Source: Candidatus Rariloculaceae bacterium (GTDB lineage Bacteria > Pseudomonadota > Gammaproteobacteria > Steroidobacterales > Rariloculaceae). Taken from it: 64,000 bases of DNA. Where the stretch lies: assembly GCA_045561025.1 (NCBI GenBank), contig JBJKYM010000015.1:6599-70598 (forward strand). The letters are read 5' to 3'. The notes below the pieces were generated by a model, which was not told where the DNA came from, did not search any database, and worked only from the letters and a program-made list of their open reading frames with translations. Both the position numbers and the translations under genes were made by a program. This document shows, piece after piece, positions 20,461-59,808 of this stretch (within the stretch, counting starts at the first letter, position 1; each line of letters begins with the position of its first letter).

Positions 20461-21333
20461 ATGGATCGCTTTCTAGATGCCATATGGATGGAACGGGGTC
20501 TCTCCGAGAATACCCTTGACGCCTATCGCGCCGATCTTCTGGCTCTGAACCAGCGCCTCAAGGGACGCAACGTTCAGATCGTTGATGCCGGCAAGGCAGA
20601 TCTACTCGACTATATTTCATGGCGTGTCGAGGGAGGGGCCAAGCCCCGGTCGACCGCGCGACAACTTTCGAGCTTCCGTCGCTTCTATCGTTATCTCCTG
20701 AGAGAGGGCGTTATATCGGAGGATCCGACCGCCGATATCGCGATGCCCAAGATAGGGCGTTCTCTGCCTCAATCGTTGAGCGAGGATGAAGTTGATGCGC
20801 TGCTTGCTGCACCGAATGTATCGGAGCCACTCGGCAACCGCGACAGAGCGATGCTCGAATTGCTTTACGCCACCGGTGTGCGCGTTTCCGAACTCATCAA
20901 CCTGAAGATGAGCCAGATCAATCTGAACCAGGGTGTTATTCGAATCGTCGGCAAGGGCGACCATGAGCGCCTGATTCCGCTCGGTGACGAGGCGCAGGAC
21001 TGGCTTCGAGATTTTATCGACGGAGCGCGAATCGAGATTCTGTTGGAGCGCCAGACGGATTATCTGTTCCCGACACGGCGTGGTGACTGCATGACACGCC
21101 AGGCTTTCTGGCACATCATTAAGCGTTACGCGAAGAAGGCGGGAGTGAAGAAAAAACTTTCTCCGCATACCGTTCGCCACGCTTTCGCTACGCATCTGCT
21201 GAACAATGGAGCAGATCTCCGCGTAGTGCAGATGCTCCTGGGTCACAGTGACGTATCGACAACACAAATCTATACGCACGTCGCTCGAGAACGTCTGAAG
21301 GACCTTCATTCGCAGCACCATCCAAGGGGCTGA
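20461..21333 (+). CDS. xerD: site-specific tyrosine recombinase XerD
   Basis: MDRFLDAIWMERGLSENTLDAYRADL N-terminus; catalytic residues in ATGVRVSEL, HTVRHAFATHLL, LLGHSDVSTTQIYTHV. Start trimmed to ATG 20461. Followed by dsbC as in many gammaproteobacteria. Confidence 0.9.
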   Translation: MDRFLDAIWMERGLSENTLDAYRADLLALNQRLKGRNVQIVDAGKADLLDYISWRVEGGAKPRSTARQLSSFRRFYRYLLREGVISEDPTADIAMPKIGRSLPQSLSEDEVDALLAAPNVSEPLGNRDRAMLELLYATGVRVSELINLKMSQINLNQGVIRIVGKGDHERLIPLGDEAQDWLRDFIDGARIEILLERQTDYLFPTRRGDCMTRQAFWHIIKRYAKKAGVKKKLSPHTVRHAFATHLLNNGADLRVVQMLLGHSDVSTTQIYTHVARERLKDLHSQHHPRG

Positions 21334-22180: not shown

Positions 22181-22372
22181 CTTCGCGCTGTTCCTGCGCG
22201 GGTGGCAGCACACCCGGTACTGAATTGTCGGCAGACTCCGGTTCCAATCGGAATCGTAGATAACCGGCTTATCACGATCAGTGGTTTACGATCTGCCGTG
22301 CGCCATTAAGAAATCCTCATGTTTTTTCGAGCAGCCGCGTGTAGGATTGCGAAACTACTCGATGGTATAGCT

Positions 22373-23308
22373 ATGAAGTTTCTTGTCTCCGCCGCAATAG
22401 CGAATCTTGCTTTTTCACTTGCTGCGTTCGCGCAGGCGCCCGAATGGGCCTACCCCGTACGCGACCTCTCGGTCACACCACCGCCGGTGGATATGGACGC
22501 CCCGCGGACGGTTCCTGGCAGTGATCGCTACTACACTCAGACAGAGATCGACAATCACTGGACGCCGCCGGTTTGGTTTCCCGAGGATTTTGAGCCGATT
22601 CCCGATGTTGTCCTGAATGGTGCCGGAGATCATGTCCGCGCCTGCGCGGCCTGTCACCTGACCTCGGGCTCAGGGCACCCGGAATCCTCGCATCTTGAAG
22701 GCCTGACGGTCGGCTACATGCTGCAGCAAATGGAAGATTTCGCGAGCGGTGCGCGCGTGGACAGTAACTGGATGAACGAGTTCGCTGAAGCGATCTCTGA
22801 AGAGGATAACCTCGCGGCTGCTGAATATTATGCCGCCAGGGAACCTGCGGACTGGGTCGATGTGGTGGAGGCAGAGATTGTCCCGCGTACCTATATGGGC
22901 GAGGGTCGTATGATCTTCGTTCATCCTGAAGGCGGGACCGAGCCGCTCGGGCAGCGAATTATCGAGCTTCCTGTAGACCCCGAGCTCGTAACGGCCGGGC
23001 ATCCCTATTCAGGTTTCACCGCCTATGCGCCGGTTGGCAGTATCGCTCGTGGTGAGGAATTGGCCACGACGGGTGATAACGGTATGACCGTTCCCTGCAC
23101 GATTTGTCACGGTCAGGACCTGAACGGTCTCGGAGATATTCCGCGAATTGCAGGTATCTCACCGCTCTACACGATTCGGCAGCTCTACGACTTCCAGGCC
23201 GGCGTGCGCGCCGGACCATCGGCTGTGCTGATGACCCCGACCGTCGCGAATCTTTCCCTCGACGACATGATCGCGTTGGCGGCCTACCTCGCATCGCTGG
23301 ACCCGTAG
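22373..23308 (+). CDS. exported dihaem c-type cytochrome
   Basis: Signal peptide MKFLVSAAIANLAFSLAAFAQA and two CxxCH sites (CAACH, CTICH). Start trimmed to ATG 22373. Confidence 0.8.
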   Translation: MKFLVSAAIANLAFSLAAFAQAPEWAYPVRDLSVTPPPVDMDAPRTVPGSDRYYTQTEIDNHWTPPVWFPEDFEPIPDVVLNGAGDHVRACAACHLTSGSGHPESSHLEGLTVGYMLQQMEDFASGARVDSNWMNEFAEAISEEDNLAAAEYYAAREPADWVDVVEAEIVPRTYMGEGRMIFVHPEGGTEPLGQRIIELPVDPELVTAGHPYSGFTAYAPVGSIARGEELATTGDNGMTVPCTICHGQDLNGLGDIPRIAGISPLYTIRQLYDFQAGVRAGPSAVLMTPTVANLSLDDMIALAAYLASLDP

Positions 23309-24478: not shown

Positions 24479-25474
24479 ATGATAAAAGCACGAGCAGCTA
24501 GATACTGGATCGGCACGCTGGCAGTGTTCATGGCCCTATCTTCATTCGCGCATCACGGCCCGCCGAATAACGTTCTCTACGATCTGGACAACATCGTAGA
24601 ACTCGAGGGAGAGGTCACCGAGCTCTTCTGGCGCAATCCCCACGTCCGTTTCAGAGTGCAGATCGACGGCAGCGATTCCGAGGTCTGGGGAATTGAATCG
24701 GGGCCGGTGACCTGGTTATTCCGGCTCGGCTGGACAGCCGACATCGTTTCAGTTGGCGATCATGTAAAAGTCGCAGGCTACGTTTCCAAGCGGCGCGCCA
24801 ACGAGATGGCTTTAACTAGTATGCTTTTACCCAGCGGACTAGAATTCACCGGCAGCGCCAGGCAGGGAGATCTGAGATTTTCTGACCAGCGTGTGGAAGT
24901 CGATCGGCAGGAGATTGCCGCCGCCGACAGGGAAGCGGCCATTCGCGAAGCCGACGGAATTTTTCGCGTCTGGGCATGGGGTGTGCGTGAGTTCGGCGGT
25001 GGTGGAACACCGGATAATGACGCCAGCGTCCTAACCGACGCTGCCCGAACCGCACGGGAGAATTTCGACATCGCTACGGACGAACCTTTTCTAAGTTGCA
25101 TTCAGGATGGAATGCCGCGGGCGATGTTTCATCCCTGTGTCATCGAATTCGTCGACGAGGGGGCTACGATCTCGTTCCGCAGCCACGAGCATGATATTCG
25201 GCGAACGATTCATATGTCGACAGACGTTGATGCTACGACGGTGTCACCAAGCTCGCTCGGTTACTCGGTAGGCGAATGGGACGGCGATACGCTTGTCGTA
25301 ACGACGACTCAGCTGAACTGGCATTTGTCGGACGAGATGGGTACGCCGCAGAGCCCGAATATGAGATTGCTCGAACGCTTCACGCCCGGCGCAAACGGTG
25401 AGCGGCTTGATTACGAGCTGACTTCATTCGACCCTGCTTATCTGACAGGGCCATCCGTGCGCACCGCGCATTAG
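24479..25474 (+). CDS. HH/NPH family member 1 (fused N+C domains), truncated by an in-frame TAG; full-length frame continues to 25540
   Basis: Signal peptide ...ALSSFA|HHGPP, WRNPH motif, C-domain motifs DGIFRVWAW, LSCIQDGMP, VGEWDGDTLVVTT. The TAG at 25472-25474 aligns with a Trp conserved in paralogs (GHWIWNPG / GVWIWLPG vs AH*MWVPG). The next 21 in-frame codons encode the conserved tail LELEPYEC. Confidence 0.8.
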   Translation: MIKARAARYWIGTLAVFMALSSFAHHGPPNNVLYDLDNIVELEGEVTELFWRNPHVRFRVQIDGSDSEVWGIESGPVTWLFRLGWTADIVSVGDHVKVAGYVSKRRANEMALTSMLLPSGLEFTGSARQGDLRFSDQRVEVDRQEIAAADREAAIREADGIFRVWAWGVREFGGGGTPDNDASVLTDAARTARENFDIATDEPFLSCIQDGMPRAMFHPCVIEFVDEGATISFRSHEHDIRRTIHMSTDVDATTVSPSSLGYSVGEWDGDTLVVTTTQLNWHLSDEMGTPQSPNMRLLERFTPGANGERLDYELTSFDPAYLTGPSVRTAH

Positions 25475-25596
25475 ATGTGGGTGCCGGGCTTGGAGCTAGA
25501 GCCCTACGAGTGCGAGGTTTGGGAGCGCCCCTCGGAATAGCGCAGCCATTCGCGTCCGATGATCAATATTCACGAACTCAGTTCAGGATGCCCGCT

Positions 25597-26595
25597 ATGA
25601 AATTCGTTGCTATCAATTTATTGCTGCTCGTCTCGTTCGACGCCGGGGCTCATCATGCCGTCACGGTTGCTTATGACACCAACAATCTGACCGCGATTGA
25701 GGGAGAGGTTACGAATGTATTCTGGCAGAATCCACATATCGTCGTGACCATTGAGCGAACGCTGGCGGACGGCAGTGTTGAGGAGTGGCGGGCCGAGTCG
25801 GGTTCGACGAATAGCCTCGAGCGAGTAGGCATCGGCAGGGACATTATCTCTATCGGCGATACGATCAGTTTGTATGGAGCGCCTTCCCGTCGGGGGATGA
25901 CGACGATGGCTGCCTATACGATGACGCTGGCGAGCGGTCGAGAAGTACCGCTATGGCCGCAGCGCGCGGTTCAACTTGGCAGGACGATCGAACAGGCGCC
26001 GATCTCCGAGGCCGCTGCCGATGCTGGTGAGCGTGCGGCCGATGGGATCTTTCGAATCTGGAGTCGTGTCGGAAGATCGCTACAGCTGGACGTGTCCTAC
26101 ACGCCCGAAGCTGTGGCAGCGCGTGAGGGATGGGACCCGCTGGCGGACGATCCCGCCCTGCAATGTATCCCACCCGGGATGCCGGGGATGATGAACAACC
26201 CCTACCCAATAGAGTTCGTCGACGAGGGTGACCGGATTCTTTTGAGACTCGAGGAATGGGACGGACTTCGCACTATTCATATGTCGGATGCGGCCCCAGA
26301 CGCTCAGGAGGCATCCGGCGTCGGTTACTCAACGGGGCAGTGGGAAGGAAACACGCTAGTCGTAACGACAACGAATATCGATGAGCCGTTCTTCGACGAT
26401 CTGGGAACACCGCAAGGCCCGGCGGTTCGGCTAGTTGAACGGTTCGTCTTAAGCGATACGCAGGACCGACTCGACTATCGAGTTACCGTTACGGACGCCT
26501 CGACTTTTGTCGAGCCTGCAACCCTGACGGGGCACTGGATCTGGAATCCGGGAGAAGAAATCAAGCCGTTTCAGTGCGCGCTACCGGACGCGTAA
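25597..26595 (+). CDS. HH/NPH family member 2 (fused N+C domains), exported, function unknown
   Basis: MKFVAINLLLLVSFDAGA|HHAV..., WQNPH, ADGIFRIW, LQCIPPGMPGMMNNPYPIEFVDEG, TGQWEGNTLVVTT, C-terminal KPFQC. Start at ATG 25597 (AGGA 8 nt upstream) rather than the ORF-track start 25477. Confidence 0.85.
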   Translation: MKFVAINLLLLVSFDAGAHHAVTVAYDTNNLTAIEGEVTNVFWQNPHIVVTIERTLADGSVEEWRAESGSTNSLERVGIGRDIISIGDTISLYGAPSRRGMTTMAAYTMTLASGREVPLWPQRAVQLGRTIEQAPISEAAADAGERAADGIFRIWSRVGRSLQLDVSYTPEAVAAREGWDPLADDPALQCIPPGMPGMMNNPYPIEFVDEGDRILLRLEEWDGLRTIHMSDAAPDAQEASGVGYSTGQWEGNTLVVTTTNIDEPFFDDLGTPQGPAVRLVERFVLSDTQDRLDYRVTVTDASTFVEPATLTGHWIWNPGEEIKPFQCALPDA

Positions 26596-31970: not shown

Positions 31971-32984
31971 TTGTTGACGAGAATGTCTTCGCGGACGAGT
32001 CTGTTGGCAACTGGTCTTCTGCTGTATGCCGCGCACGCAGGAGCCCACCACAGCGCGGTCCAGTTCGATCTGTCGGCCACAATCTCGTTCGACGCGGTCG
32101 TTACTGAGTTCGAATGGAAGAACCCGCACGTATTCGTTCAGGTCGACCGCGTCGATGATGAAGGTCAGGTGACCAGTCTGCAGATCGAAGCGGATGGTGC
32201 CTCGATGCTGACTCCCCATCGTTGGTCTCGAGATTCGCTGGAGCCCGGGGATCGCGTCATCGTGGAAGCCTATCCTGCGCGGCGTGCCGACGGCCGCTCG
32301 TTGCTGGGTTACTCGATAACGAAGCGCGACGGAACGGTTCTGTCTCCCAATCCGGATCGATTTATCAGCGAGCAGGTGAGTTCGCCTCAGGCTGCACGTA
32401 TCGAAGGCGTGTGGCTGCCCCGATGGGCAGCGTTCTTCCGTCTGAGAAATGCCCGGCTGCCACTCACGGAAGAAGGAAGGCAATTCCGGGAGGGACCGGA
32501 GTCGGAGCAGATACCATTGTACGAATGCGCTCCTTTCTCGACGCCGCGCATCATGGTGATACCCGTGCGGTCGGAGATCGAGATACTCACTGATCGTGTG
32601 TTGATTCGTGTGGACTGGCTGGATGTCGAGCGGGTCATCTACACGGATGGCCGTGAGCATCCGACCAATGGCCCGCGTACGCTTCAGGGGCATTCGATTG
32701 GCAACTGGGAAGGCGACACGCTCGTTATCGATACCGTGCTATTCAGTGATGAGTCTATGGGCGAGTACAGCCTGCCGAGTGGACCGGACAGGCACATAGA
32801 AGAACGGCTTAGTCTGAATGCAGACCGCCGGACACTCGACTACGCGTTCACGCTCGAGGATCCCGAGTATCTTACTGAGCCGGTTTCCGGCGGAGGAAGC
32901 TGGGATTATCGCCCCGAGTTGGAGCCGTCCTCGGTGGCCTGCGATCTGGAAGCCTCAAGACGAAATCTCGACACCACCGAGTAG
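31971..32984 (+). CDS. HH/NPH family member 3 (fused N+C domains)
   Basis: ...LLLYAAHAGA|HHSAVQFD, WKNPH, IEGVWLP, YECAPFSTP, IGNWEGDTLVIDT, C-terminal SSVAC. Start may be TTG 31971 or ATG 31983. Confidence 0.8.
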   Translation: MLTRMSSRTSLLATGLLLYAAHAGAHHSAVQFDLSATISFDAVVTEFEWKNPHVFVQVDRVDDEGQVTSLQIEADGASMLTPHRWSRDSLEPGDRVIVEAYPARRADGRSLLGYSITKRDGTVLSPNPDRFISEQVSSPQAARIEGVWLPRWAAFFRLRNARLPLTEEGRQFREGPESEQIPLYECAPFSTPRIMVIPVRSEIEILTDRVLIRVDWLDVERVIYTDGREHPTNGPRTLQGHSIGNWEGDTLVIDTVLFSDESMGEYSLPSGPDRHIEERLSLNADRRTLDYAFTLEDPEYLTEPVSGGGSWDYRPELEPSSVACDLEASRRNLDTTE

Positions 32985-37913: not shown

Positions 37914-38002
37914 TCCTCGAGCCCGGAATTTCTGCAAGCGACGGTTCCGGAAGCGAGCAGGGTAAGATAAAGGTCTCACAAGAAGGCCTCGTGGAGGGGA
38001 AA

Positions 38003-38791
38003 ATGTCACGAACTCAAGTACCAGGAACAATTTTGGTCCTGTCCGCTCTCGTCTCGCCGATGGCAGTAGCACAGCATGGCATGCCTGGCGGAATTCCGAT
38101 GAGCTTTTTCGTAACCAGCGAGCCGGTTGGCGACGGTGGTGATCTGGGCGGTCTGGCAGGCGCTGATGCGCACTGCCAAAGACTCGCGGAGGACGTTGGC
38201 GCCGGCGATTTCACCTGGCGAGCCTATCTCAGCACCCAGGACAAGCCGGGTGCGCCGGCGGTCAACGCGCGTGATCGAATCGGCGAAGGACCCTGGCACA
38301 ACTACGACGGCGTTATGATCGCGAGTAGTCTGGCGCACTTGCACGGCGACACGCTGGAGCTCGCGCGCATGGGCAACAACCTGCACAAGCAATCCGGGCT
38401 CACTGAGAAGGGCGCTATCGTACCCGGACTCTACGATTTTCTGGATCCCCGGGATATCGACTGGGAGTACGTCAAGAACACGCCATATTCGAATCGCCAC
38501 GAGGTCATCACCGGCTCACAGCCTGATGGTCGCGCCTATCCGCCCGGAGTCGATTACACCTGCGACAGCTGGACCAGTAACGCCGATCCTGGGCCCGATA
38601 TCGACCTGTCCGGACTGGGCGGCGGCGCGAACAGGCCGAACGCACAGATTGGTTTCCCCGACCGGGAGGGGGGCGGCAACGGCTCCTGGAATTCTTCTCA
38701 CGGCACGCGCGGCTGCAGCCAGGTAGCCCTGCCATTAACCCATGGAATCGGTCAGTTCTACTGTTTCGCCCTGACGGGAGACGAGCGATGA
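38003..38791 (+). CDS. exported endostatin-like (DUF1554-like, C-type-lectin fold) protein, paralog A
   Basis: Signal peptide, then FFVTSEPVGDGGDLGGLAGADAHCQRLAEDVGAGDFTWRAYLST...RDRIGEGPW...YTCDSWTS...RGCSQ...FYCFAL. Four Cys in the same order and context as collagen XVIII endostatin ([13 protein letters not shown]...TFRAFLSS...YCETW...SCHH...VLCIE). Confidence 0.6.
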   Translation: MSRTQVPGTILVLSALVSPMAVAQHGMPGGIPMSFFVTSEPVGDGGDLGGLAGADAHCQRLAEDVGAGDFTWRAYLSTQDKPGAPAVNARDRIGEGPWHNYDGVMIASSLAHLHGDTLELARMGNNLHKQSGLTEKGAIVPGLYDFLDPRDIDWEYVKNTPYSNRHEVITGSQPDGRAYPPGVDYTCDSWTSNADPGPDIDLSGLGGGANRPNAQIGFPDREGGGNGSWNSSHGTRGCSQVALPLTHGIGQFYCFALTGDER

Positions 38792-39498
38792 GCAAAACAA
38801 AGCTTATGCTGCTGATTTCCGCGCTTGGAATTTTCGCTGCAACTGAGACCGTTCTGGCTCAGGGAATGGGCATTCATGCGCTGCGCCTTTTCGTTCCGTC
38901 TGAACTGATGTCGTTCTTCGTTACGAGTGAACCGCTCGGCGATGGCGGCAATCTCGGTGGCCTCGCAGGTGCAGACGCGCATTGCCAACGTCTGGCGACG
39001 AACGCGGGCGCTGGCCACCGTACCTGGCGGGCTTACCTCAGCACGCAGGCTCGTCCGGGTCAGCCAGCGATCAATGCGCGCGACCGAATCGGAGACGGAC
39101 CCTGGTATCACGCCCGGGGTGTGCTCCGGCGACCGATAAAGACGTCGGAAATTCACGGCGACACTCTAATCGAGGCTCAGCGTGGCGCGAATATGTTCAA
39201 GGCGTTCGCGCTTACGGAGAAAGGCGATGAAATCAACGGCGTTGGCGATCCGCTGCCTAATCTGCACGATATGCTGACAGGTACGCAGCCGGACGGCCGC
39301 GCCTTTACCGGAGACGAGGACCGCACCTGCAACAACTGGACCAGCAACGACGAAGGCGCCGCTCAGGTCGGACATTCCGATCGCATCGGTCATGGCAATC
39401 AGTCCTGGAACTCATCGCACGCGACGACGGGATGTAGCCAGGAGGATTTTGCAAGCTGGAACGGTGCCGGCCTTTTCTACTGTTTCGCGATCGACTGA
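38788..39498 (+). CDS. exported endostatin-like (DUF1554-like) protein, paralog B
   Basis: FFVTSEPLGDGGNLGGLAGADAHCQRLATNAGAGHRTWRAYLSTQARPGQPAINARDRIGDGPW...RTCNNWTS...TGCSQ...FYCFAI. ATGA overlap with paralog A. Confidence 0.6.
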   Translation: MSKTKLMLLISALGIFAATETVLAQGMGIHALRLFVPSELMSFFVTSEPLGDGGNLGGLAGADAHCQRLATNAGAGHRTWRAYLSTQARPGQPAINARDRIGDGPWYHARGVLRRPIKTSEIHGDTLIEAQRGANMFKAFALTEKGDEINGVGDPLPNLHDMLTGTQPDGRAFTGDEDRTCNNWTSNDEGAAQVGHSDRIGHGNQSWNSSHATTGCSQEDFASWNGAGLFYCFAID

Positions 39499-39534: not shown

Positions 39535-40194
39535 ATGAGAAAGCGACGATCGACACTTCTTCTGGGCGCTGCGGTGGCCAGCCTGAGCTTCGCTGGAGCC
39601 GTTTCGGCGGCCCCCTTCATAGATGGAATCTGGGATCCTGTATTCGAACGGGGGTTGGGACACCCACCGCCAGAGGACGTGAAACTAACGGCTGCCGGAC
39701 AGGCTGCGTATGACAGTTTCTCAAAAGAATCCGACCCGACGTTGAAATGCATCATGCCGGGCGTGCCTCTTGGAATTTACGATCCATATCCGCTGGAAAT
39801 AATTCAGCAGGATCATCAGGTTGTGTTTCTGCATGAGCACTTTCACATGGTGCGTCGATTCTTTACCGATGGAAGAGACGTGCCCGATAACTGGTGGCCG
39901 TCACTGGTTGGCTTCTCCGTAGGAAACTGGGAAGGCGATACGCTGGTCGTTAAGACCACCCATATGTCGTCCGACAACATCATGTGGCACAGCGGGATGC
40001 CGTTCTCCGGAGACCCTGAGTCCTATGTCATCGAACGCTATGATTTCGACGGCGACGAGATGACTCTCACCGCTGAAGTATTCGACCCTACCTATTTTGA
40101 GGAGCCGTATGTTATTCGCAGCCGCCGCGTGAGAAATCCTGACGGCATGATTTTCGAATATGAGTGCTACGCTGAATTCAGTGGCGCAGAATAA
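39535..40194 (+). CDS. HH/NPH family: stand-alone C-domain protein
   Basis: Signal peptide, then FIDGIWDP, LKCIMPGVPLGIYDPYPLEIIQQDHQVVFLHE, VGNWEGDTLVVKTT, VIERYDF...LTAEVFDPTYFEEPY, C-terminal FEYEC. No HH/NPH domain. Confidence 0.8.
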   Translation: MRKRRSTLLLGAAVASLSFAGAVSAAPFIDGIWDPVFERGLGHPPPEDVKLTAAGQAAYDSFSKESDPTLKCIMPGVPLGIYDPYPLEIIQQDHQVVFLHEHFHMVRRFFTDGRDVPDNWWPSLVGFSVGNWEGDTLVVKTTHMSSDNIMWHSGMPFSGDPESYVIERYDFDGDEMTLTAEVFDPTYFEEPYVIRSRRVRNPDGMIFEYECYAEFSGAE

Positions 40195-41062: not shown

Positions 41063-41458
41063 GTGATACACGAGGGTGGATGCCACTGCGGGGCTGTGCG
41101 CTTCGAGGTGGACGCGCCGGAGACGCTCGAATGCGGTGATTGCAACTGCTCCATCTGTTCGAAGTCGGGCTTTCTCCACCTCATCGTTCCGGCCTCCTGC
41201 TTTACGCTTCTGAGCGGTCGCGAGAATCTTGAGACTTACACGTTTAATATCGGCGTTGCGCAACATTTGTTCTGCCGGACCTGTGGAGTGAAATCGTTCT
41301 ACATACCACGCTCGAATCCTGACGGAGTCGACGTAAACGTGAGATGCCTGGAGCCGCAGCCGACTGAGATATCAATAGAGCCTTTCGACGGTCAGAATTG
41401 GGAGGAACACGCTCATGAGCTGGCCCATTTTTCGAAAGAAGCGATTTCGAGCACGTGA
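41063..41458 (+). CDS. GFA-family (CENP-V/glutathione-dependent formaldehyde-activating-like) zinc protein
   Basis: Cys motifs GGCHCGAVRFEV, CNCSICSKSGFLHLIV, FCRTCGV. GTG 41063 chosen to avoid overlap with the cupin gene (the ORF-track start 41015 is also possible). Confidence 0.75.
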   Translation: MIHEGGCHCGAVRFEVDAPETLECGDCNCSICSKSGFLHLIVPASCFTLLSGRENLETYTFNIGVAQHLFCRTCGVKSFYIPRSNPDGVDVNVRCLEPQPTEISIEPFDGQNWEEHAHELAHFSKEAISST

Positions 41459-41493
41459 ATAAACAGGTGTTCCTGAGGGAACGGAGAGAAGCG

Positions 41494-42264
41494 ATGAGGA
41501 TACGACACGGCATTTTCGCGCTGGCTGCCGTACTCGCTGCGGGCTGGGCACTGGCTCAGACTGAAGAGGCATTGCGCGTCTACAGTTCCAACGGAGTTCG
41601 GGTAGTCCTGCAGGAGATGCAACCACAGATTGAGCAGGCGATCGGACAACGGATCAGTTTCGAGCTGAGTACATCGCGAACGCTCGTAGAACAAATCGAA
41701 TCCGGCGAGCACTTTGATGTCGCGCTGCTGACGCCGGCGCTTATCGATGGCTTAATCGCGTCGCAGCACGTGAACGCCGGGTCACGCCAGGATTTTGCTC
41801 GCGTCGGAATCGGCGTTGGATCCAGAGAGGGAACGCCCGCGACGAGTGTCGCCACACTCGACGATCTGCGGCAGACTTTTTTGGCTGCAAAATCGATCGC
41901 GTTCGGCGCGAACGGTCAGAGCAGAATTACAAACGAGGGAAGCTTCGAGACGCTGGGAATCGCTGACGAAATGCGACCAAAAACTCGATTGACAGGTGCC
42001 GGAGAGGCGCCGGGTCTTGTTGCCGAGGGCGAGATTGAGCTCGTGCTGACGCTGGTAAGTGAACTGCTGCGTGAACCCGGTGTCCAGTTTCTTGGGCCGC
42101 TGCCCGCCGAAGTGCAGGGTTACGTTGATTTCTCCGCCGGGACTAGTGCAACTACCGGAGATGCCGCGGCTAGCGAAGCGCTCATCGCTTATCTCTATTC
42201 TCCGGCGTTCATTGAATCGCTCGAAAAGCATGGTCTGGAGCCGATTTCCGCCGCTGTCCATTGA
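41494..42264 (+). CDS. exported periplasmic-binding-protein-like (ModA-type PBP2 fold) orphan solute-binding protein
   Basis: Signal peptide MRIRHGIFALAAVLAAGWALAQ, then LRVYSSNGVRVVLQEMQPQIEQAIGQRISFELSTSRTLVEQIESGEHFDVALL, typical of molybdate/anion-type SBPs. No permease or ATPase nearby. Confidence 0.55.
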   Translation: MRIRHGIFALAAVLAAGWALAQTEEALRVYSSNGVRVVLQEMQPQIEQAIGQRISFELSTSRTLVEQIESGEHFDVALLTPALIDGLIASQHVNAGSRQDFARVGIGVGSREGTPATSVATLDDLRQTFLAAKSIAFGANGQSRITNEGSFETLGIADEMRPKTRLTGAGEAPGLVAEGEIELVLTLVSELLREPGVQFLGPLPAEVQGYVDFSAGTSATTGDAAASEALIAYLYSPAFIESLEKHGLEPISAAVH

Positions 42265-42296: not shown

Positions 42297-43943
42297 ATGA
42301 GCGGGACAATGGTTAATATTCAGTTAGTAAAGGTCGCCAGGAAACACGTGTTGAACAATATCGTCTCATTGGAATTTCCGATTTTCGTCCGGCGGAGAGC
42401 TGCTTTGGCTGGCGCCTGTGCCATTTTCGCGTTGCTCAGCGCTGGCATGGCGTCGGCGCAGTCGCTGCCACGCACGGCGGATGGCAATCCCGATCTTCAG
42501 GGAATCTGGCGTGCCGTCAATCGTGCCGGCTACGATCTCGAAGGTCATGCGCCCCGGCACGATATGCCGGCTGGCATCGGTGTCGTCGACGGTGGGTCCA
42601 TTCCGTACCAGCCGTGGGCGGCCGAACAGAGGCTCGCTAACTTTGAGGCACGCGCTACGGCGGATCCGCTCTCGAAGTGTTTTCTCCCCGGCGTGCCTCG
42701 GGTTACCTCGCTGGAGTTTCCATTCCAGATATTTCAGATGGAGGAACATGTTGCGATCACCTATGAGTGGCAGCAGGTCTATCGCCTGATCTATACGAAC
42801 GGCGAGCCACCTTTATATGGCGGAATTCCTTCCTGGATGGGTAATTCACGCGGCCATTGGGACGGCGACGTATTCGTTGTTGAGGTCATGGACCAGAATG
42901 GCAATACCTGGCTGGATGCTGCCGGAAACTTCCACAGCGACGCTATTCAGGTAACCGAGCGTTATAGCCTGCGCGACGAAAACACGATCGACTACGAGGC
43001 GACGATTGAAGATCCGAACGTGTTCACGCGACCGTGGACTTTGCGGCTCGTACTGCAGCGGCAAACGCATATGGATCGTCTGCTCGAGTATCAATGTCAG
43101 GCGCTTGTAGAAGAAGAGAATGGCGCATTCGAGCGCGATGAGCCGACCTGGTATCCCGCGGCGCTTCCTGCCGACAACGAGCCGTTCGACGCTGACGCCG
43201 GTGCGGATCTGGCACTGCCGGAACCGGAATCGGAGATTAGAAGGCTGGCCGATGGCACGCCTGATATCAGCGGCTATTTTATGGCTGATGCGGGAGGCGC
43301 GAATTACGGTCTGGAGGCTCACCCACGCGAAATCATGCTGCCGCCAAGCCGCGGTCAGGTTATTGATCCGACAGACGGCTCATTACCGTATCAGGCGTGG
43401 GCAAGAACTGAGCGTATGGATCGCGAGCAGCCACACCGGGGTTACGACGATCCGACCGCGCATTGCATCGTCGCCGGCGTTCCAAGATCACACTATGTTC
43501 CCGCGCCGTTTTATATTCTTCAGCCGCCGGGTTACGTCGTCGTTCTTCATGAGCGAATGTCGTGGCGTCAGATTGCTCTGGAAGAACGTGAGCCGCTACC
43601 CGACAACATTCGCCTCTGGCAGGGGGATTCGATCGGGCGCTGGGAAGGAGATTCGCTGGTCGTCGAGTCGCAGAATTTCAATGGAAAAGCCTGGCTCAAT
43701 GAGGCAGGCGACGTCGCCAGTCACATGCTGAAGGTCGTTGAGACATTCACGCCCGGCAGCGACTCCCAGGTGATCTATCGGGCGACACTGACTGATCCGA
43801 TTTCATACACGCGGCCGTATACGATAGAGATGCCATTCAATCGATCTCACGACGAACTGCTGGAGGTTGCCTGCCTCGAAGATAACGGCGATCTGCAGCA
43901 TCTAAAGGATGTGCGTGACGAGCACCGTGCAAATCAGAATTGA
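42297..43943 (+). CDS. HH/NPH family: protein with two tandem C-domains
   Basis: Signal region RRRAALAGACAIFALLSAGMASAQ. Copy 1: LQGIWRAV, SKCFLPGVPRVT, RGHWDGDVFVVEV, LEYQC. Copy 2: ISGYFMAD, AHCIVAGVPRSH, IGRWEGDSLVVES, LLEVAC. Exact start uncertain. Confidence 0.8.
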   Translation: MSGTMVNIQLVKVARKHVLNNIVSLEFPIFVRRRAALAGACAIFALLSAGMASAQSLPRTADGNPDLQGIWRAVNRAGYDLEGHAPRHDMPAGIGVVDGGSIPYQPWAAEQRLANFEARATADPLSKCFLPGVPRVTSLEFPFQIFQMEEHVAITYEWQQVYRLIYTNGEPPLYGGIPSWMGNSRGHWDGDVFVVEVMDQNGNTWLDAAGNFHSDAIQVTERYSLRDENTIDYEATIEDPNVFTRPWTLRLVLQRQTHMDRLLEYQCQALVEEENGAFERDEPTWYPAALPADNEPFDADAGADLALPEPESEIRRLADGTPDISGYFMADAGGANYGLEAHPREIMLPPSRGQVIDPTDGSLPYQAWARTERMDREQPHRGYDDPTAHCIVAGVPRSHYVPAPFYILQPPGYVVVLHERMSWRQIALEEREPLPDNIRLWQGDSIGRWEGDSLVVESQNFNGKAWLNEAGDVASHMLKVVETFTPGSDSQVIYRATLTDPISYTRPYTIEMPFNRSHDELLEVACLEDNGDLQHLKDVRDEHRANQN

Positions 43944-43957
43944 GAGAGACCAGGACA

Positions 43958-44362
43958 ATGACGAAATTTATCCAGGCGGCCCTCGCTGCAACAGTTTTTA
44001 CGGCAACATGTTTCTCAGGTGCTGCGCTGGCGCATCATGCCTTCGCCGCGGAGTTCGATAGAGACAAGCCCGTACACATGACGGGTACGGTCACAGAGAT
44101 GAAATGGTCCAATCCACACGGATGGATCTACCTTGATGTCGAGGACGAGAACGGTAACGTCGTGAATTGGGCCTTCGAGACGCGCGCTGCGAACAACCTG
44201 ATCCGCATCGGCTGGCGCCCGAGCGATCTGCCGGTTGGAACCGTACTCGAGGTAAACGGTTATCAGGCACGAAACGACACACCGACTGCGAGTCTCGCCG
44301 GCGCAGTTCTGCCGGACGGCCGCACGCTATTTTCCGGCACTCCGGATTCCGACGAGGACTAG
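43958..44362 (+). CDS. HH/NPH family: stand-alone N-domain protein (DUF6152-like)
   Basis: MTKFIQAALAATVFTATCFSGAALA|HHAFAAEFDRDKPVHMTGTVTEMKWSNPHGWIYLDV...WAFETRAANNLIRIGWRPSDLPVGTVLEVNG; 134 aa from ATG 43958. Confidence 0.82.
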   Translation: MTKFIQAALAATVFTATCFSGAALAHHAFAAEFDRDKPVHMTGTVTEMKWSNPHGWIYLDVEDENGNVVNWAFETRAANNLIRIGWRPSDLPVGTVLEVNGYQARNDTPTASLAGAVLPDGRTLFSGTPDSDED

Positions 44363-44418: not shown

Positions 44419-45450
44419 GTGAAACAGATCTCAGCACTGCTTACCCTGTTCGTTGCGTTCGCGGCGTCACCGGTCTCCGCCCACCACAGCGCGTCGATAT
44501 TCGACCGCGATACTGTTCTGGTCTTTCCGGGCACCGTTACCCGATTCAACTGGGCCAACCCGCATGTCTATATCTATGTCGCGACGCGCGATGATGCGGG
44601 TCGAATCATCGAGTGGGAGATAGAAACCGACGCGACGCCGATTCTGCTGCGCAGCGGCTGGACCTCCGAGTCGTTACAACCGGGCAGCCAGGTTGTCGTG
44701 CGCGCCAATCCGGACAGGAACGTCAATAGAAATCATGCGTTGCTGGTCTCGATTGAGAGAGAAGACGGTGCTGTATTCGCGGCGCGGTCTGATTTTCTTC
44801 GAACGGAAGACGAAAGCGACCTGCTGGCTTCTGCCGCGAGCATGAACGGCATATGGGAGCTCAGCTACAGGGACTACAACTCGTTCTACGCTGTCTGGGC
44901 AGAGGTCGCTTTAACCGAAAAGGCGCTGGCAGCGCAGGCGACTTATGACGCCAGGGTGGAAGCGCCAGCCGCACAGTGCATTGCGCATCCGACGCCGACT
45001 ATCCTGGTTGCCCCCTATGCAAATGAGATCGTCATTCAGGACGATGTGGTGTTAATCAGGAACGAGCGTTTCAATATTGAGCGTACGGTGTATATGGACG
45101 GGCGCGGTCATCCTGAGAACGGAGAGCCCTCCAATCAGGGGCATTCCATTGGCTGGTGGGAGGACGACGTTCTTGTCTTCGACACGACGCTGTTCGCCAA
45201 CAACAGATCGCCGATATTCGGGCGGCCGATACGACCCGGGGGCGTTCCATCTGGTCCCGGCAAGCACGTTGTGGAAAGATTGGCGTTGAGTGACGATGGC
45301 ACGCGTATCGTTATCGACTTCACCCAGGAGGATCCGGAGTATCTTGCGGAACCGTTCAGTAGCACCGTGGAGTGGTATTTCGCGCCGCACCTGGAGATGC
45401 GTGGGTTTGGCTGCGACTCCGAGAACGCTACGCGATTCACGCTTGAGTGA
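44419..45450 (+). CDS. HH/NPH family member (fused N+C domains)
   Basis: GTG 44419 gives (M)KQISALLTLFVAFAASPVSA|HHSASIFD, WANPH, MNGIWELS, AQCIAHPTP, IGWWEDDVLVFDT, C-terminal RGFGC. The longer ORF-track start (44167) overlaps the previous gene and is rejected. Confidence 0.8.
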   Translation: MKQISALLTLFVAFAASPVSAHHSASIFDRDTVLVFPGTVTRFNWANPHVYIYVATRDDAGRIIEWEIETDATPILLRSGWTSESLQPGSQVVVRANPDRNVNRNHALLVSIEREDGAVFAARSDFLRTEDESDLLASAASMNGIWELSYRDYNSFYAVWAEVALTEKALAAQATYDARVEAPAAQCIAHPTPTILVAPYANEIVIQDDVVLIRNERFNIERTVYMDGRGHPENGEPSNQGHSIGWWEDDVLVFDTTLFANNRSPIFGRPIRPGGVPSGPGKHVVERLALSDDGTRIVIDFTQEDPEYLAEPFSSTVEWYFAPHLEMRGFGCDSENATRFTLE

Positions 45451-45503: not shown

Positions 45504-46517
45504 ATGAGGTTAATTCAGGTTTTCATGGCTGTCGGCGCGTCGCTCGGCGTGCTTAGCGCGCATGGTCATCATGCTTCAGCCGGAATCTACGACCGAAACG
45601 ATATCGGCGAGATCCAGGGCGAAATTACCTCGGTCTTCTGGCGCAATCCTCATGTTCGTTTCAACGTCTCCCGTATCGGCGATGGTGGCGAGGAAGAAAC
45701 CTGGGAGATTGAGTTCGGCTCGGTTAATACGGTCGAGCGTCTGGGCGTCACGCGCGAAAGGGTCAACGTAGGCGATCAGATTTCCGTAACAGGTAGCCTG
45801 GGGCGTAACGGCATGCATGTCATGTTCGCCGGCGCTGTCACCTTGTCCACGGGCGAGGAGTTGTTGCTCCAGGCGCCCTCGGCTGTCCGCTACGGAATTA
45901 CCGAGCAGGCCGTAGATGAATCCCGCGATGCCGATACCGAGCTGCGGGCCGACATCTTTCGTGTATGGCTTCCAAGTGAGCGCCCCGAAACCGGTTCGGG
46001 TACAACCGAGTATCCGTTGACCGACGTTGGCCGCGCGGCACAGACAGGCTGGGATGCGACCGACGACCCGGCGCTGCGCTGTATCCCGCCCGGCATTCCG
46101 ACGGCCATGGACAACCCCTACCCGATAGAGTTTATAGATCAGGGTGGCACGATCACTATGCTGCTGGAGGAATGGGACGGGGTCCGAACGATCTTCATGA
46201 ACGACAACGGCGACCAGCAACCGGCACAGCCGCGAATGGGATATTCGCGAGGGCGTCAGGAAGGAAACACGTTGGTTGTAGAGACCAGCGATATCGCCTG
46301 GCGATATGTAGACGATCTCGGCACGCCGATGAGCGAAGATGCCGTCATCGAAGAACGGTTTACGCTGATCGACGACGGAACGAGCCTGGAATGGGTTGCG
46401 CGCATCACGGATCCGGTGAATTTCACCGAGCCGGTCGTTATGGAGGGTGTATGGATCTGGCTACCCGGCCACGAGATCAAGCCTTTCAACTGCGCGTTAC
46501 CGGGCGATGGCGACTGA
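45504..46517 (+). CDS. HH/NPH family member (fused N+C domains)
   Basis: MRLIQVFMAVGASLGVLSAHG|HHASAGIYD, WRNPH, ADIFRVW, LRCIPPGIPTAMDNPYPIEFIDQG, RGRQEGNTLVVET, KPFNC. By eye the closest paralog of the 25597 gene. Confidence 0.85.
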   Translation: MRLIQVFMAVGASLGVLSAHGHHASAGIYDRNDIGEIQGEITSVFWRNPHVRFNVSRIGDGGEEETWEIEFGSVNTVERLGVTRERVNVGDQISVTGSLGRNGMHVMFAGAVTLSTGEELLLQAPSAVRYGITEQAVDESRDADTELRADIFRVWLPSERPETGSGTTEYPLTDVGRAAQTGWDATDDPALRCIPPGIPTAMDNPYPIEFIDQGGTITMLLEEWDGVRTIFMNDNGDQQPAQPRMGYSRGRQEGNTLVVETSDIAWRYVDDLGTPMSEDAVIEERFTLIDDGTSLEWVARITDPVNFTEPVVMEGVWIWLPGHEIKPFNCALPGDGD

Positions 46518-47297: not shown

Positions 47298-48362
47298 ATG
47301 CAATATCGGCTGCTCATCGCATCCATTGCGTTACTGACTCTTAGTTCGGGCGGGCGGCTCCATGCGCATCATGGTGCCGCCGCTCATTTCGATCCCAACG
47401 ATGTGGTGACGCTTAATGGCGTCATTACCGAGCTGCAGTTCGTCAATCCACATTCATTCGTCCACATCGACGTCAGCGATCCCAATGGCGAAGTGACATC
47501 CTGGCGCTGCGAGCTCTCCGGCACCTCACAACTTTTACGACGCGGCTGGACCCCCGAGACACTGGCGCCTGGACAATCGATAGAACTGGTTGGCGAACGT
47601 GCGCGTCGCGAAGCAAACTCCTGCGCCATGTTGACCATCGCGTTCACCGACGGAAAGGTCATCGAAGCGGGCGAAGCTATTGAGGGCGCGGCGATTCCGC
47701 AGGCTGTCGCCAGCTCGGAGGTGGCAGCCAGGCGCTCAAAATATCTGGCGAACGGTCAGCCCAACTTCGCCGGATCCTGGGTCGCTCAAACCGGTAACGC
47801 CACTGGCGGTGCGGTTACGAACGGCGCACCGGTCCCAACAGCGGCAGGGGTCGCGGCCTCGGAGCGTTTCGACTTCCGATTCGACAATCCGGTGATTCGC
47901 TGCGAGAGCGGCAATATCATCGCGGACTGGTACAGGCAGTCGCACGTCAACGAGATCGAACAGGACGATAATCGAATTACGCTGCGCTATGGTTATCTCG
48001 ATCTTGTACGCACCATTCATCTTGATGTGGTCGAACATCCGGATATTGCTGTGCCGAGTGTGGTAGGGCATTCCATCGGGCACTGGGACGGCGACGTGCT
48101 TGTCGTCGATACCCTCGGGTTTCAAGAGCTGGCGCTGCATCCACGTCAGGAGATCATGCTTAGCAGTCAGGCTCGCATCGAGGAGCGCTTCTTCTACGAT
48201 GACGCGACGCGTACGCTGGTTCGCGACTACACTATTTTCGATCCGCAGTATCTCGAACAGCCTTATAGCGGTCGGAATGTCGCGGACATCGCCGCCAGAC
48301 CGTACCAGCCGTTCGAGTGCGTTGATCTAAGCGGTGAGAATAAACGCCGACCAGTAGAATAA
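47298..48362 (+). CDS. HH/NPH family member (fused N+C domains)
   Basis: MQYRLLIASIALLTLSSGGRLHA|HHGAAAHFD, FVNPH, FAGSWVAQ, IRCESGNI, IGHWDGDVLVVDT, QPFEC. Confidence 0.8.
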   Translation: MQYRLLIASIALLTLSSGGRLHAHHGAAAHFDPNDVVTLNGVITELQFVNPHSFVHIDVSDPNGEVTSWRCELSGTSQLLRRGWTPETLAPGQSIELVGERARREANSCAMLTIAFTDGKVIEAGEAIEGAAIPQAVASSEVAARRSKYLANGQPNFAGSWVAQTGNATGGAVTNGAPVPTAAGVAASERFDFRFDNPVIRCESGNIIADWYRQSHVNEIEQDDNRITLRYGYLDLVRTIHLDVVEHPDIAVPSVVGHSIGHWDGDVLVVDTLGFQELALHPRQEIMLSSQARIEERFFYDDATRTLVRDYTIFDPQYLEQPYSGRNVADIAARPYQPFECVDLSGENKRRPVE

Positions 48363-52530: not shown

Positions 52531-53895
52531 ATGTCACGATCCAAGATTCGAGTCGCTCAATTTCTGGCAGCCACCACGCTGACGATTTTTGCCAGTGGCG
52601 GTTTCGGTTATCCGTCGATCTACCCGACGGGGACGACGATCTACGATCCGGACAGGGCGTGGAACGGCTACACGATTCATCCGACGCCAGAGGGCAAGGG
52701 CGCCGTCCTGATAGATATGAACGGTAACGTTATCCGGCGATTTGCTGAGTTCACCAGTTCGCCGATCAGGATCATGCCAGGTGGCTATATCATGGGCGGC
52801 AGCGGTGAGGCAGTCGTACAACTGGACTGGGATGGCAACGAGGTCTGGCGGTTCGATCGCACGGAGCAGATCGAAGACGAGGATGGCAACAGGATCTGGT
52901 CGGCCCGTCAGCATCACGATTGGCAACGCGAGGGGAGTCCGGCCGGTTATTACTCGCCTGACTCGGCACCCGAGCAGACGAGCGGCCGGACACTGATACT
53001 CGCGTTCAGGAATCTGACCGTCCCGGAGATCAGCGACAAGCGTCTGCGTGACGACTATTTTCTGGAGGTGTCGTGGGATGGCGAGATTCTTTGGGACTGG
53101 ACCTTAAGCGATCATGTCGATGAGCTTGGCCTCTCGGAAGCTGCCCGGAATGCCATATACCGTCATCCTGGCTGGAACGAGGGAACTCAGAGCGCAGACT
53201 GGATGCACATCAACTCGCTGTCCTACATCGGACCGAATCGTTGGTACGACGACGGCGATGAGCGTTTCCACCCGGACAATGTGATATTCAGCAGTCGATC
53301 CGCGAACATCGTCGCAATCGTCAGCCGCTCGGGCAATATCGTCTGGCGTGTGGGCCCCGACTACCGCGAGACCAGGGAGATGCGCGAGATCGGTCAGGTC
53401 ATTGGTTAGCATCACCCACATATGATTCCTGAAGGGCTACCGGGCGCGGGCAATATCATGGTCTTCGACAACGGTGGGGGCGCCGGCTTCGGCGAGTCGA
53501 ATCCGTTCGCGCCCGACGGTCGTTTTATCGTCGAGCGTTACAGTTCGCGGGTGCTCGAGATCGATCCAGTGACGATGGAGAAGGTCTGGGAGTACTCAAT
53601 TCAGGGGCACGGTCGCTTTCACTTCTTCAGTCACAACGTCAGCATGGCGCAGCGGCTACCTAACGGTAATACGCTTATCACCGAAGGGGCAGCCGGTCGG
53701 GTATTCGAGGTCACCGTAGAAGGCGAGATTGTTTGGGAGTACCTCAATCCATTCTTCTACGAGCCGGACGATACGCGACACAATATTTATCGCGCCTATC
53801 GCGTGCCTTACGATTGGATTCCACAGCTTACTCCGCCCGAGGAGCGCGCTGTCGTGCCGCCGCACCCGAGCGAATTTCGGATCGAACCGCAATGA
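52531..53895 (+). pseudogene. arylsulfotransferase (ASST)-like beta-propeller gene interrupted by one in-frame TAG
   Basis: ORFs 52531-53409 and 53422-53895 are in one frame: ...EMREIGQVIG*HHPHMIPEGLPGAGNIMVFDNGGGAGFG.... N-terminus TTIYDPDRAWNGYTIH and HINSLSY are ASST-like. TAG at 53407-53409. Confidence 0.65.
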
Positions 53896-58761: not shown

Positions 58762-59808
58762 ATGTTCAGAAGTCTTGCCGGTATCGTTGCCGCGTTCCTT
58801 TGCCTGACCGGAGCTCAGGCTCACCACTCTGTAACCCACTTCTCGCCGGATTTCACCGAGATGGAGGGTACGCTCGTCGATCTCAAGTGGCGCAATCCGC
58901 ATGTCTATTTCTATCTCGAAGTCGAAGAGGATGACGGTTCGACCCGAGTCTGGGAAATGGAGGCGGGCACGATCTATATGATCGGGCGTGCGGGCGTAAC
59001 GCGCGATATGTTCACAATCGGCGAGCGGGTTCGAGTCGCCGGGAACAGGTCGACCGTTTATGAGGACAAATTCTGGTTGACCAATGTTCTGCTTTCCGAC
59101 GGCCGTGAAGTTCTCGTCGTGGCACGCGGAGCACCGCGCTGGGCGGATGACCTGATCGGTGGGAGAAATCAGTGGAGCAACGCCGCGCTGCATGACGACA
59201 ACACCAACGATGCTGATGAGGGAATTTTTCGCGTCTGGAGTCCGCCGGGGCCTGATGCGGGCGTAGTGGTCGTGAGCGATCCCGAGCAGCGACAGTTGGC
59301 CAGCATCGCGACTGCCGCATCACTTGCCGTTCGCGAGACCTGGGATCCCTACGCCTTCGACGAAGCATGTGAGCGCGCCGGTACGCCGCGCGTCAACTTC
59401 GGTCCGCACCCACATCAGTTAATCGAAGACGGTGAGGACATTCTACTGCTCTCGGAAGAATTCGATCTTACGCGCAGATTTCATATGAATAGCGATCTGG
59501 ACCCCGAAGATCAGCCGCTGTCCAAGCTCGGGTTTTCCGTTGGTCGCTGGCAGGACGACAGGACGCTGGTCGTCGAGACATCACGCGTGAATTTTCCCTA
59601 CATGAGCCTTGCCGGTTATGGTCAAAGCGAACAGATGCGGATGACCGAGGTCTATACGTTGAGCGAGGACGAAACGCAGCTGGCCTATAAGGTGACGATC
59701 ACCGATCCCGTGATGCTGACGGCGCCTTATATACAGACCGGAGTCTGGGTCGACCTGGGAGAGGGCATGGTCGGCTACGACTGCGTCCCATCGGCCAATA
59801 GCGAATAA
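58762..59808 (+). CDS. HH/NPH family member (fused N+C domains)
   Basis: MFRSLAGIVAAFLCLTGAQA|HHSVTHFS, WRNPH, EGIFRVWSP, EACERAGTP, VGRWQDDRTLVVET, VGYDC. Start trimmed to ATG 58762. Confidence 0.82.
   Translation: MFRSLAGIVAAFLCLTGAQAHHSVTHFSPDFTEMEGTLVDLKWRNPHVYFYLEVEEDDGSTRVWEMEAGTIYMIGRAGVTRDMFTIGERVRVAGNRSTVYEDKFWLTNVLLSDGREVLVVARGAPRWADDLIGGRNQWSNAALHDDNTNDADEGIFRVWSPPGPDAGVVVVSDPEQRQLASIATAASLAVRETWDPYAFDEACERAGTPRVNFGPHPHQLIEDGEDILLLSEEFDLTRRFHMNSDLDPEDQPLSKLGFSVGRWQDDRTLVVETSRVNFPYMSLAGYGQSEQMRMTEVYTLSEDETQLAYKVTITDPVMLTAPYIQTGVWVDLGEGMVGYDCVPSANSE

Follow-up and report, generated by a model that had tools for sequence, protein, structure and literature searches.

The question raised by this locus is whether a short exported protein with two histidines at its predicted mature N-terminus is a metal protein. 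The protein, referred to here as the target, is encoded at 43958-44362 of a 64,000-nucleotide stretch of DNA from a Candidatus Rariloculaceae bacterium (the window, to which all positions refer unless another locus is named), and it is one of nine proteins of the window that combine a His-His pair directly behind a hydrophobic leader with an Asn-Pro-His motif further on. A first reading of the letters without database searches (the sequence-only reading) had proposed a periplasmic metal-binding or redox module of the histidine-brace type, probably with copper. The target belongs to the Pfam family DUF6152, its mature part is modelled as an oligonucleotide/oligosaccharide-binding (OB) fold, and it is best explained as the small subunit of a two-part exported module. 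The reading that we favour, and put forward tentatively, is that of an exported OB domain in which His1 and His2 together with His29 and Glu49 would form a mononuclear metal site, beside a calycin barrel that would hold an organic ligand. No mention of the N-terminal His-His, the OB fold or the obligate calycin partner was found in the literature searched.

A regular-expression scan of all six frames of the whole window found exactly nine stop-bounded open reading frames (ORFs) with HH...NPH, all of them on the forward strand. The junctions quoted in the sequence-only reading, given here with a slash at the predicted cut (SSFA/HHG, DAGA/HHA, HAGA/HHS, PASG/HHS, AALA/HHA, PVSA/HHS, SAHG/HHA, RLHA/HHG, and GAQA/HHS), are all correct, as are the lengths of the two stand-alone versions at 43958 (134 aa) and 40212 (140 aa) and the statement that the residue two positions before the Asn of NPH is Trp, Phe or Val (seven, one and one ORFs, respectively). 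The NPH motif is present in all nine, its His lying 26-30 residues from the first His rather than 26-29 as had been stated; in the target the context is WSNPH, mature residues 25-29, and NPH is invariant in alignments A1 and A5. The start codon is found 18-25 residues upstream of HH in each of the nine ORFs and all nine leaders are hydrophobic, with Ala or Gly at position -1 and Ala, Ser, Val or Leu at position -3.

The same pattern extends over the family. Among 341 complete members the residue at -1 is Ala, Gly or Ser in 340 and the residue at -3 is small or aliphatic in 339, the n-region carries Lys or Arg in 95%, and the median leader is 23 aa long and ends exactly at HH. These look like ordinary leaders of the Sec/signal peptidase I type, and the cleavage site that the sequence-only reading had predicted directly before HH is supported, as a site of the AXA type, both in the window and by the family-wide (-3,-1) statistics. 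That His1 is the mature N-terminus is strongly, if indirectly, supported by the fact that non-conserved leaders all end in an AXA-type site directly at HH. At the level of predicted sequence the target thus agrees with the definition of a histidine brace, in which a His is residue 1 of the mature protein (PMC10952591). It does not follow the amino-terminal Cu(II)- and Ni(II)-binding (ATCUN) motif, which has a His at mature position 3; this position is Ser in 362, Ala in 113, and Gly in 13 of 501 distinct domains, pooled from all proteins and from the 95 loci described below, on which the conservation counts for single positions are based.

All nine N-domains of the window exceed the gathering threshold that Pfam sets for PF19649 (DUF6152), the target with 101.7 bits against a cut-off of 27 and the other eight with 55-91 bits, and DUF6152 is the sole Pfam match of the target. 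An NCBI entry named "DUF6152 family protein", from a metagenome-assembled genome (MAG) of Candidatus Rariloculaceae, has the same sequence as the target product (100% identity). The domain is therefore already catalogued, as a family without assigned function, which the sequence-only reading had missed; the NPH motif is presumably part of the Pfam description of PF19649. NCBIfam holds no model that matches either the DUF6152 domain or its partner domain, and the PDB gave no significant sequence match to the target protein or to profiles of both domains. DUF6152 or PF19649 is not mentioned in the literature searched, and it is absent from the signal-strapping paper on N-terminal-His families and its supplements (PMC12537917).

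The family is very large, with nine copies in the window, and entirely uncharacterised. A profile of the nine window domains run against representatives of 50%-identity clusters found at least 14,225 of them at E <= 0.001 and 7,339 at E <= 1e-10. HH...NPH is present in 120 of 120 close homologues and in 118 of 120 homologues of the fusion proteins described below (one exception is N-truncated and the other has NPR), and HH...NPx is present in 147 of the best 150 cluster representatives, in which the profile match usually begins at protein residue 18-30. Since all nine ORFs lie above the Pfam threshold, the recurrence of the motif is far beyond chance. The claim that the two N-terminal histidines and the NPH His are invariant is essentially true: among the 501 domains H1 is conserved in 499, H2 in 498, and H29 in 496, together with N27 (488) and P28 (500). 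Other highly conserved positions are E49 (488), G18 (493), W46 (490), G60 (490), G69 (495), and G96 (478), followed by W25 (462), R58 (460), and D9 (454). DUF6152 occurs in Gamma- and Alphaproteobacteria, Acidobacteriota, and Planctomycetota, and the best 80 genomic relatives from a contig profile scan (alignment A1) are all MAGs, of Gamma- and Alphaproteobacteria, Acidobacteriota, and Pirellulaceae.

The beta-rich pattern had led to the guess of a small barrel or OB-like fold, and the model and its structural matches agree with this guess. The AlphaFold2 model of the mature target, made with a 56-sequence alignment, has a mean predicted local distance difference test score (pLDDT) of 86.9 and a predicted TM-score (pTM) of 0.80. 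Its strands (residues 8-26, 29-37, 43-52, 71-79, and 85-92) and its helix (53-58) follow the classic OB order of a long beta1, a turn at N27-P28, beta2, beta3, a short helix, beta4, and beta5, and form in the model a five-stranded closed barrel with the helix between strands 3 and 4. Foldseek against the PDB retrieved PriB, SSB, and the N-terminal anticodon-binding OB fold of LysRS (best E 9e-4, TM about 0.5); the top 50 matches were all nucleic-acid-binding OB folds and contained no copper protein.

Mean-field direct coupling analysis (DCA) of the 501 domains, with an effective number of 236, recovers the ladders beta2-beta3 (W31-A47, D35-V43), beta3-beta5 (I48-A86), and beta1-beta4 (T15-E75), as well as i/i+4 pairs of the helix. 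The register of beta2-beta3, i+j = 78 in these couplings and in the strands of the model, makes it likely that H29 and E49 are direct cross-strand neighbours. From the hydrophobic alternation, in which V30, I32, V34, and V36 of one strand and V44, W46, and L48 of the other face in, we infer that H29, W31, Y33, A47, and E49, with W25, are on the exterior beta1-beta2-beta3 face, which is the canonical ligand-binding face of OB folds.

The sequence-only reading had overlooked a second component of the system, a lipocalin-like domain that is fused to DUF6152 or encoded just upstream of it. Seven of the nine window ORFs continue for about 200 residues beyond the DUF6152 domain and the other two are single-domain proteins. 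The C-domains align among themselves, with the protein encoded at 39535-40194, and with each of the two halves of that encoded at 42297-43943, whose gene ends shortly before the target. The AlphaFold2 model of one fusion (44482-45447; pLDDT 91.2, pTM 0.85) is confident as a whole, and its C-domain (44830-45447) matches the barrels of CRABP2 and FABP4 (Foldseek E 4e-4 to 1e-3, target-normalised TM 0.54-0.67). At fold level only, it is thus a predicted calycin, i.e., an anti-parallel barrel like those of FABP and CRABP with an N-terminal G-x-W, as the domain begins with "GIW". Two Cys, R83, G-x-S-x-G-x-W, E143, and D160-P161 are invariant in it, and its motifs read G-x-S-x-G-x-W-E-G-D-T-L-V-V and D-P-x-Y-L-T-E-P. 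Even at E <= 5 Pfam gives no match to this domain, which has at least 3,849 homologues, and among the 120 homologues listed DUF6152 was the only Pfam domain that accompanied it. The partner therefore looks like an uncatalogued exported domain family of about 200 aa that is tied exclusively to DUF6152. The window copy of the two-barrel protein has an RRR, and export by the twin-arginine translocation (Tat) pathway was considered and rejected, as 62 of 71 homologues have plain Sec leaders.

The linkage of the two domains was scanned over 95 loci (1.5 Mb) with hidden Markov models of our own for the DUF6152 (N) and calycin-like (C) domains. The loci contain 122 stand-alone N ORFs, 33 NC fusions, 71 CC ORFs with two barrels, and 76 single-C ORFs, and the stand-alone DUF6152 gene lies directly downstream of a CC or C ORF in 86 of the 122 cases, in 63 of them of a CC ORF. 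In the window seven paralogues carry the calycin barrel fused to their C-terminus, and the target has it in the gene just upstream, with 14 nt between the stop codon of this two-barrel gene and the ATG of the target. The calycin-like barrel is thus an obligate partner of DUF6152, either fused or adjacent. The CC-DUF6152 pair recurs at seven distinct places outside the window (among L001-L009, L095, and L096), where a protein of 514-527 aa without Pfam match precedes a DUF6152 protein of about 130 aa and the surroundings are otherwise all different. As the two genes overlap by 4 nt or are only 4-7 nt apart at these places, translational coupling is suggested. In the window the stop codon TGA of the two-barrel gene (43941-43943) overlaps an in-frame TTG of the DUF6152 frame (TTGA; region 43940-43958).

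The module is also present on two annotated plasmids. NZ_CP011453 of Croceibacterium atlanticum 26DY36 (L098, 8485-12684) carries two DUF6152 genes, a calycin-like "hypothetical protein", a TonB-dependent receptor, and a MarR regulator, and NZ_CP117419 of Novosphingobium humi KACC 19094 (L099, 8093-10142) carries a calycin-like gene overlapping DUF6152, followed by TetR. Both are cultured sphingomonads and could be used for genetics. The partner is itself absent from Pfam, and its pairing with DUF6152 provides a concrete two-protein system that can be tested.

In a histidine brace, copper is bound by the amino group and N-pi of an N-terminal His and by N-tau of a second His (PMC10952591). Irrespective of the fold, metals are chelated by a His that signal cleavage turns into residue 1 (PMC12537917; PMC10952591), and this signature has recently led to four new metalloprotein families, metal binding by the N-terminal His being reported for DUF4198, DUF6702, and Ang-1/2 (Cairo et al. 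2025, PMC12537917). In DUF4198 the N-terminal His and one distal His bind the metal, with Ni preferred to Cu. These families have little or no oxidase or peroxidase activity and were read as serving transport or sequestration (PMC12537917).

In the mechanism that we propose, cleavage by signal peptidase would free the amine and the imidazole of His1, which with His2 and/or His29 would chelate one divalent transition-metal ion, with Glu49 or Asp9 as an additional ligand or in the second shell. The site would be on the exterior beta1-beta2-beta3 face of the OB domain, beside the conserved aromatic residues W25 and W31 or Y31. An N-terminal Xaa-His dipeptide is in itself a strong chelator of Cu(II) and Ni(II). 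On the grounds of coordination chemistry, i.e., the His-brace, N-terminal Xaa-His motifs, and the Irving-Williams series, Cu(II) would be the most likely occupant, with Ni(II) and Zn(II) also possible. The partner barrel would contain a small organic ligand as the object on which the metal-bearing OB domain acts or to which it hands over, and the paralogues, amid varied hydrolases, oxidoreductases, and TetR regulators, would represent different substrates in a catabolic island. With respect to the sequence-only reading, the metal part of its proposal is in line with the leaders, the OB fold, the invariance of the histidines, and the precedent of other N-terminal-His families, but nothing points to copper specifically, and copper occupancy and a true T-shaped histidine brace are unproven. 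If metal binding is real, DUF6152 would be a fifth N-terminal-His family, on an OB fold, which is not known to carry a histidine brace.

In the favoured reading of a metal site beside a ligand-holding barrel, the N-terminal arm would reach the face on which H29 and E49 would lie. Couplings between arm and face are found for A5-G51 (rank 15), S3-W25 (rank 17), and E7-G51 (rank 24), with R10-I55 (rank 32) as a further coupling of the arm and with position 4 coupled to positions 31 and 32. Residues 1-10 have a mean pLDDT of 59 in the stand-alone model and of 77 in the fusion model, in which the calycin domain is present. Several observations weigh on the other side. In the stand-alone model residues 1-3 have a pLDDT below 50, and a regional covariation test for arm contacts was not significant, as 14% and 55% of random column sets did equally well. 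As the couplings of the arm are few and the regional enrichment is not significant, the convergence of H1, H2, and H29 is plausible but unproven. The main role of Asn-Pro-His may be that of a structural turn, and no His is conserved in the partner domain. Genes were read with Pfam labels in the window and at nine distinct places elsewhere, plus the two plasmids, and in these contexts there are no genes of Cu, Ni or Zn homeostasis and no metal-responsive regulators, the regulators nearby being TetR or MarR. ORFs with CxxCH, as in cytochromes c, are near family genes in only 17 of 94 loci, several of them doubtful. Also to be counted here are four proteins of other organisms with two DUF6152 domains in tandem (P0242-P0245), in which HH is retained in the internal domain while the NPH His is gone (NPR, KPR or no motif), and the tandem protein P0251, which has NPH in both domains and HH in neither, behind a long unrelated N-terminal region.

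In other tandem proteins the internal domain lacks HH (P0241, P0246, P0248, P0289, and P0306, with HH changed to HQ). No internal domain has both HH and NPH and every N-terminal domain has both, P0251 aside, and this pattern fits a requirement of the complete site for a free N-terminus. On the other hand, since HH occurs internally without NPH and NPH occurs without HH, the two motifs are not strictly co-dependent and each has a value of its own; the imidazoles may be of value without the amine, and Asn-Pro-His may be partly structural.

Two alternatives that we regard as unlikely deserve a longer discussion. One is that the protein is a metal shuttle or sequestering protein and not a catalytic or redox centre. 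Its N-terminal His-His would bind Ni, Zn, Co or Cu in the periplasm, in the manner of DUF4198, DUF6702, and the "anglerases" Ang-1 and Ang-2, and the metal would go on to a partner, which could be the calycin protein, a TonB-dependent receptor, or a periplasmic metallo-hydrolase encoded nearby. The low oxidase and peroxidase activity of the characterised N-terminal-His families and the preference of DUF4198 for Ni (PMC12537917) would be consistent with this, and so would the neighbours of the module, which often are metal-dependent hydrolases (metallo-beta-lactamase fold, M19 and M20 peptidases, amidohydrolases), and the TonB-dependent receptor that adjoins the module in C. atlanticum. However, metal transporters or regulators of the Zur, Fur, NikR or CueR type are not found beside the module in the contexts read and the neighbouring enzymes mostly differ between loci. 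Nine paralogues within 35 kb would be unusual for metal supply, and the obligate lipocalin-like partner suggests an organic ligand.

The other, equally to be doubted, is that no metal is involved and that His1, His2, His29, and Glu49 make up an acid-base or ligand site, e.g., with a His-Glu dyad, or are mainly structural; the site could then serve a small molecule delivered by the calycin barrel, or the N-terminal arm could simply be docked and Asn-Pro-His be a turn. The atypical tandem members, with an internal HH that has no free amine or with NPH in the absence of HH, argue for this, as do the predicted proximity of H29 and E49 across the strands, the position of the site on the canonical ligand-binding face, and the catabolic-looking, TetR-regulated contexts. 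Yet thousands of divergent sequences all have HH right at the cleavage junction, which is hard to explain unless the free N-terminus matters, and by established coordination chemistry an exposed N-terminal His-His would in any case be a chelator of periplasmic Cu(II) or Ni(II) (PMC12537917).

A more specific version of the favoured metal site, in which DUF6152 is a new periplasmic mononuclear copper (histidine-brace) oxidase or oxygenase on an OB fold and a small hydrophobic or organic substrate is offered to the copper by the lipocalin-like barrel, must be considered improbable. If true, it would mean chemistry like that of lytic polysaccharide monooxygenases (LPMOs) for small molecules, with paralogues that diversify the substrate range in uncultured marine and soil heterotrophs. 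A constant redox partner of the cytochrome c type can be rejected, since such genes are present at 17 of 94 loci at most. Haem or tetrapyrrole handling by an exported OB fold with His ligands, in analogy to the haem chaperone CcmE, which is also an OB fold, and with the c-type cytochromes near DUF6152 in L010, L011, L095, and the window as an argument in its favour, is very unlikely, as CxxCH neighbours are rare and partly doubtful, CcmE is not among the top 50 fold matches and has its HxxxY motif in the C-terminal tail and not at the N-terminus, and there are no haem-biogenesis genes nearby.

Like DUF6152, the LPMOs of families AA9-AA17, CopC/PcoC, the CuB site of PmoB, YcnI, and X325/Bim1 are exported and combine a His1, predicted in the case of DUF6152, with a further invariant His, which in DUF6152 would be available as second brace ligand; they are however Ig-like, beta-sandwich or cupredoxin-like, whereas DUF6152 is an OB fold with an invariant second His and a calycin-like partner. 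No homology to LPMO, CopC or YcnI was seen among the Pfam matches, the PDB sequence matches, or the top 50 fold matches. The signal-strapping families share with DUF6152 the logic of a DUF with a conserved His right after the signal peptide, but they are non-homologous beta-sandwiches and their His1 is conserved in 65-79%, compared with more than 99% in DUF6152 (PMC12537917). CusF, the periplasmic OB-fold-like Cu(I)/Ag(I) chaperone of E. coli, has in common with DUF6152 a small five-stranded barrel and a Trp near the site, which in DUF6152 is a candidate site. It binds metal through a His/Met/Met/Trp site, whereas the candidate ligands in DUF6152 are the N-terminal His-His and the His of the turn. 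Homology to CusF was rejected on the basis of an hhalign probability of 0.4% and the absence of a conserved Met from DUF6152. ZinT (YodA) resembles the module by description, as a periplasmic calycin-type barrel with a His-rich N-terminal metal-binding segment, but in the DUF6152 module a separate OB domain carries the His motif and no His is conserved in the calycin-like domain.

Table 1. Features of the DUF6152 module in the window; a slash marks the predicted signal cleavage.
Feature	Position	Strand	Remarks
Starts of the HH codons in the nine ORFs	24551, 25651, 32046, 40284, 44033, 44482, 45567, 47367, 58822	+	
Target, stand-alone DUF6152, 134 aa	43958-44362	+	Identical to NCBI protein P0001
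Signal peptide of target, 25 aa, MTKFIQAALAATVFTATCFSGAALA	43958..44032	+	Cleavage predicted after ALA; ATG at 43958, AGGA upstream
His1-His2 of predicted mature target (HHAFAAE...)	44033..44038	+	
Mature DUF6152 OB-fold domain (modelled), 109 aa	44033..44362 (end includes stop codon)	+	PF19649, 101.7 bits
Asn27-Pro28-His29, beta1-beta2 turn of OB barrel	44111..44119	+	Turn at residues 27-28 in the model
Glu49 on beta3, candidate extra ligand or hydrogen-bond partner	44177..44179	+	Likely cross-strand neighbour of His29
Partner gene, exported 548-aa protein with two calycin-like barrels (CC)	42297..43943	+	Internal repeat aligned with C-domains of the fusions
Single calycin-like partner protein, 219 aa	39535..40194	+	Upstream of second stand-alone DUF6152; no Pfam match
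Second stand-alone DUF6152, 140 aa	40212..40634	+	PASG/HHS ... MNPH; Pfam 55.3 bits
DUF6152 + calycin-like fusion	24479..25474	+	C-terminus truncated relative to paralogues, second conserved Cys missing
DUF6152 + calycin-like fusion	25588..26595	+	
DUF6152 + calycin-like fusion	31983..32984	+	Directly downstream of metallo-beta-lactamase-fold gene
DUF6152 + calycin-like fusion	44419..45450	+	GTG start; the fusion modelled
DUF6152 + calycin-like fusion	45504..46517	+	
DUF6152 + calycin-like fusion	47298..48362	+	
DUF6152 + calycin-like fusion	58762..59808	+	Upstream of metallo-beta-lactamase-fold gene; syntenic with L012

The first of the fusions in the window ends early (...SVRTAH), without the last strand or strands of the calycin-like domain, and is directly followed by the next paralogue; this copy is possibly in decay. 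The part of the window between about 20 kb and 62 kb is an island of hydrolases and oxidoreductases, mostly on the forward strand. It includes genes for metallo-beta-lactamase-fold proteins, NHL/SGL propellers, aldo-keto reductase, BKACE, cupin, and GFA proteins, and further for M20 peptidase, amidohydrolase, an arylsulfotransferase-like protein, TetR, an orphan SBP_bac_11, and a dihaem cytochrome c. Similar kinds of neighbours recur at other loci and none of them is constant. A tyrosine recombinase/integrase (20308-21333) lies between the island and a region of housekeeping-type genes, with a large NAD-glutamate dehydrogenase (8730-13535) and an electron transfer flavoprotein (ETF)-ubiquinone oxidoreductase (16756-18432), and transposases and integrases flank the module in L001, L008, and L009. 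It is possible that the DUF6152 island was acquired horizontally.

Some neighbours were seen more than once. Genes for c-type cytochromes near DUF6152 are found at 22319-23308 of the window, at 6918-7970 of L010, and at 4850-5188 of L095; the gene is directly upstream of a fusion in L010 and L011 and two genes upstream of the pair in L095. An orphan SBP_bac_11 (ModA-like) gene with no permease of an ATP-binding cassette (ABC) transporter adjacent to it is present in two unrelated contexts, at 41455-42264 of the window and at 5905-6675 of L010. Just upstream of the first calycin-DUF6152 pair of the window two overlapping genes (37991-38791 and 38788-39498) encode paralogous exported proteins, both weakly similar to the endostatin-like Len outer-membrane proteins of Leptospira and one with a weak match to DUF1554. 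Further downstream the adjacent ORFs 52531-53409 and 53422-53895 match the N- and C-terminal parts of arylsulfotransferase (ASST), respectively, and look like a single gene that a frameshift or a stop has interrupted, whether as a pseudogene or through an error of assembly.

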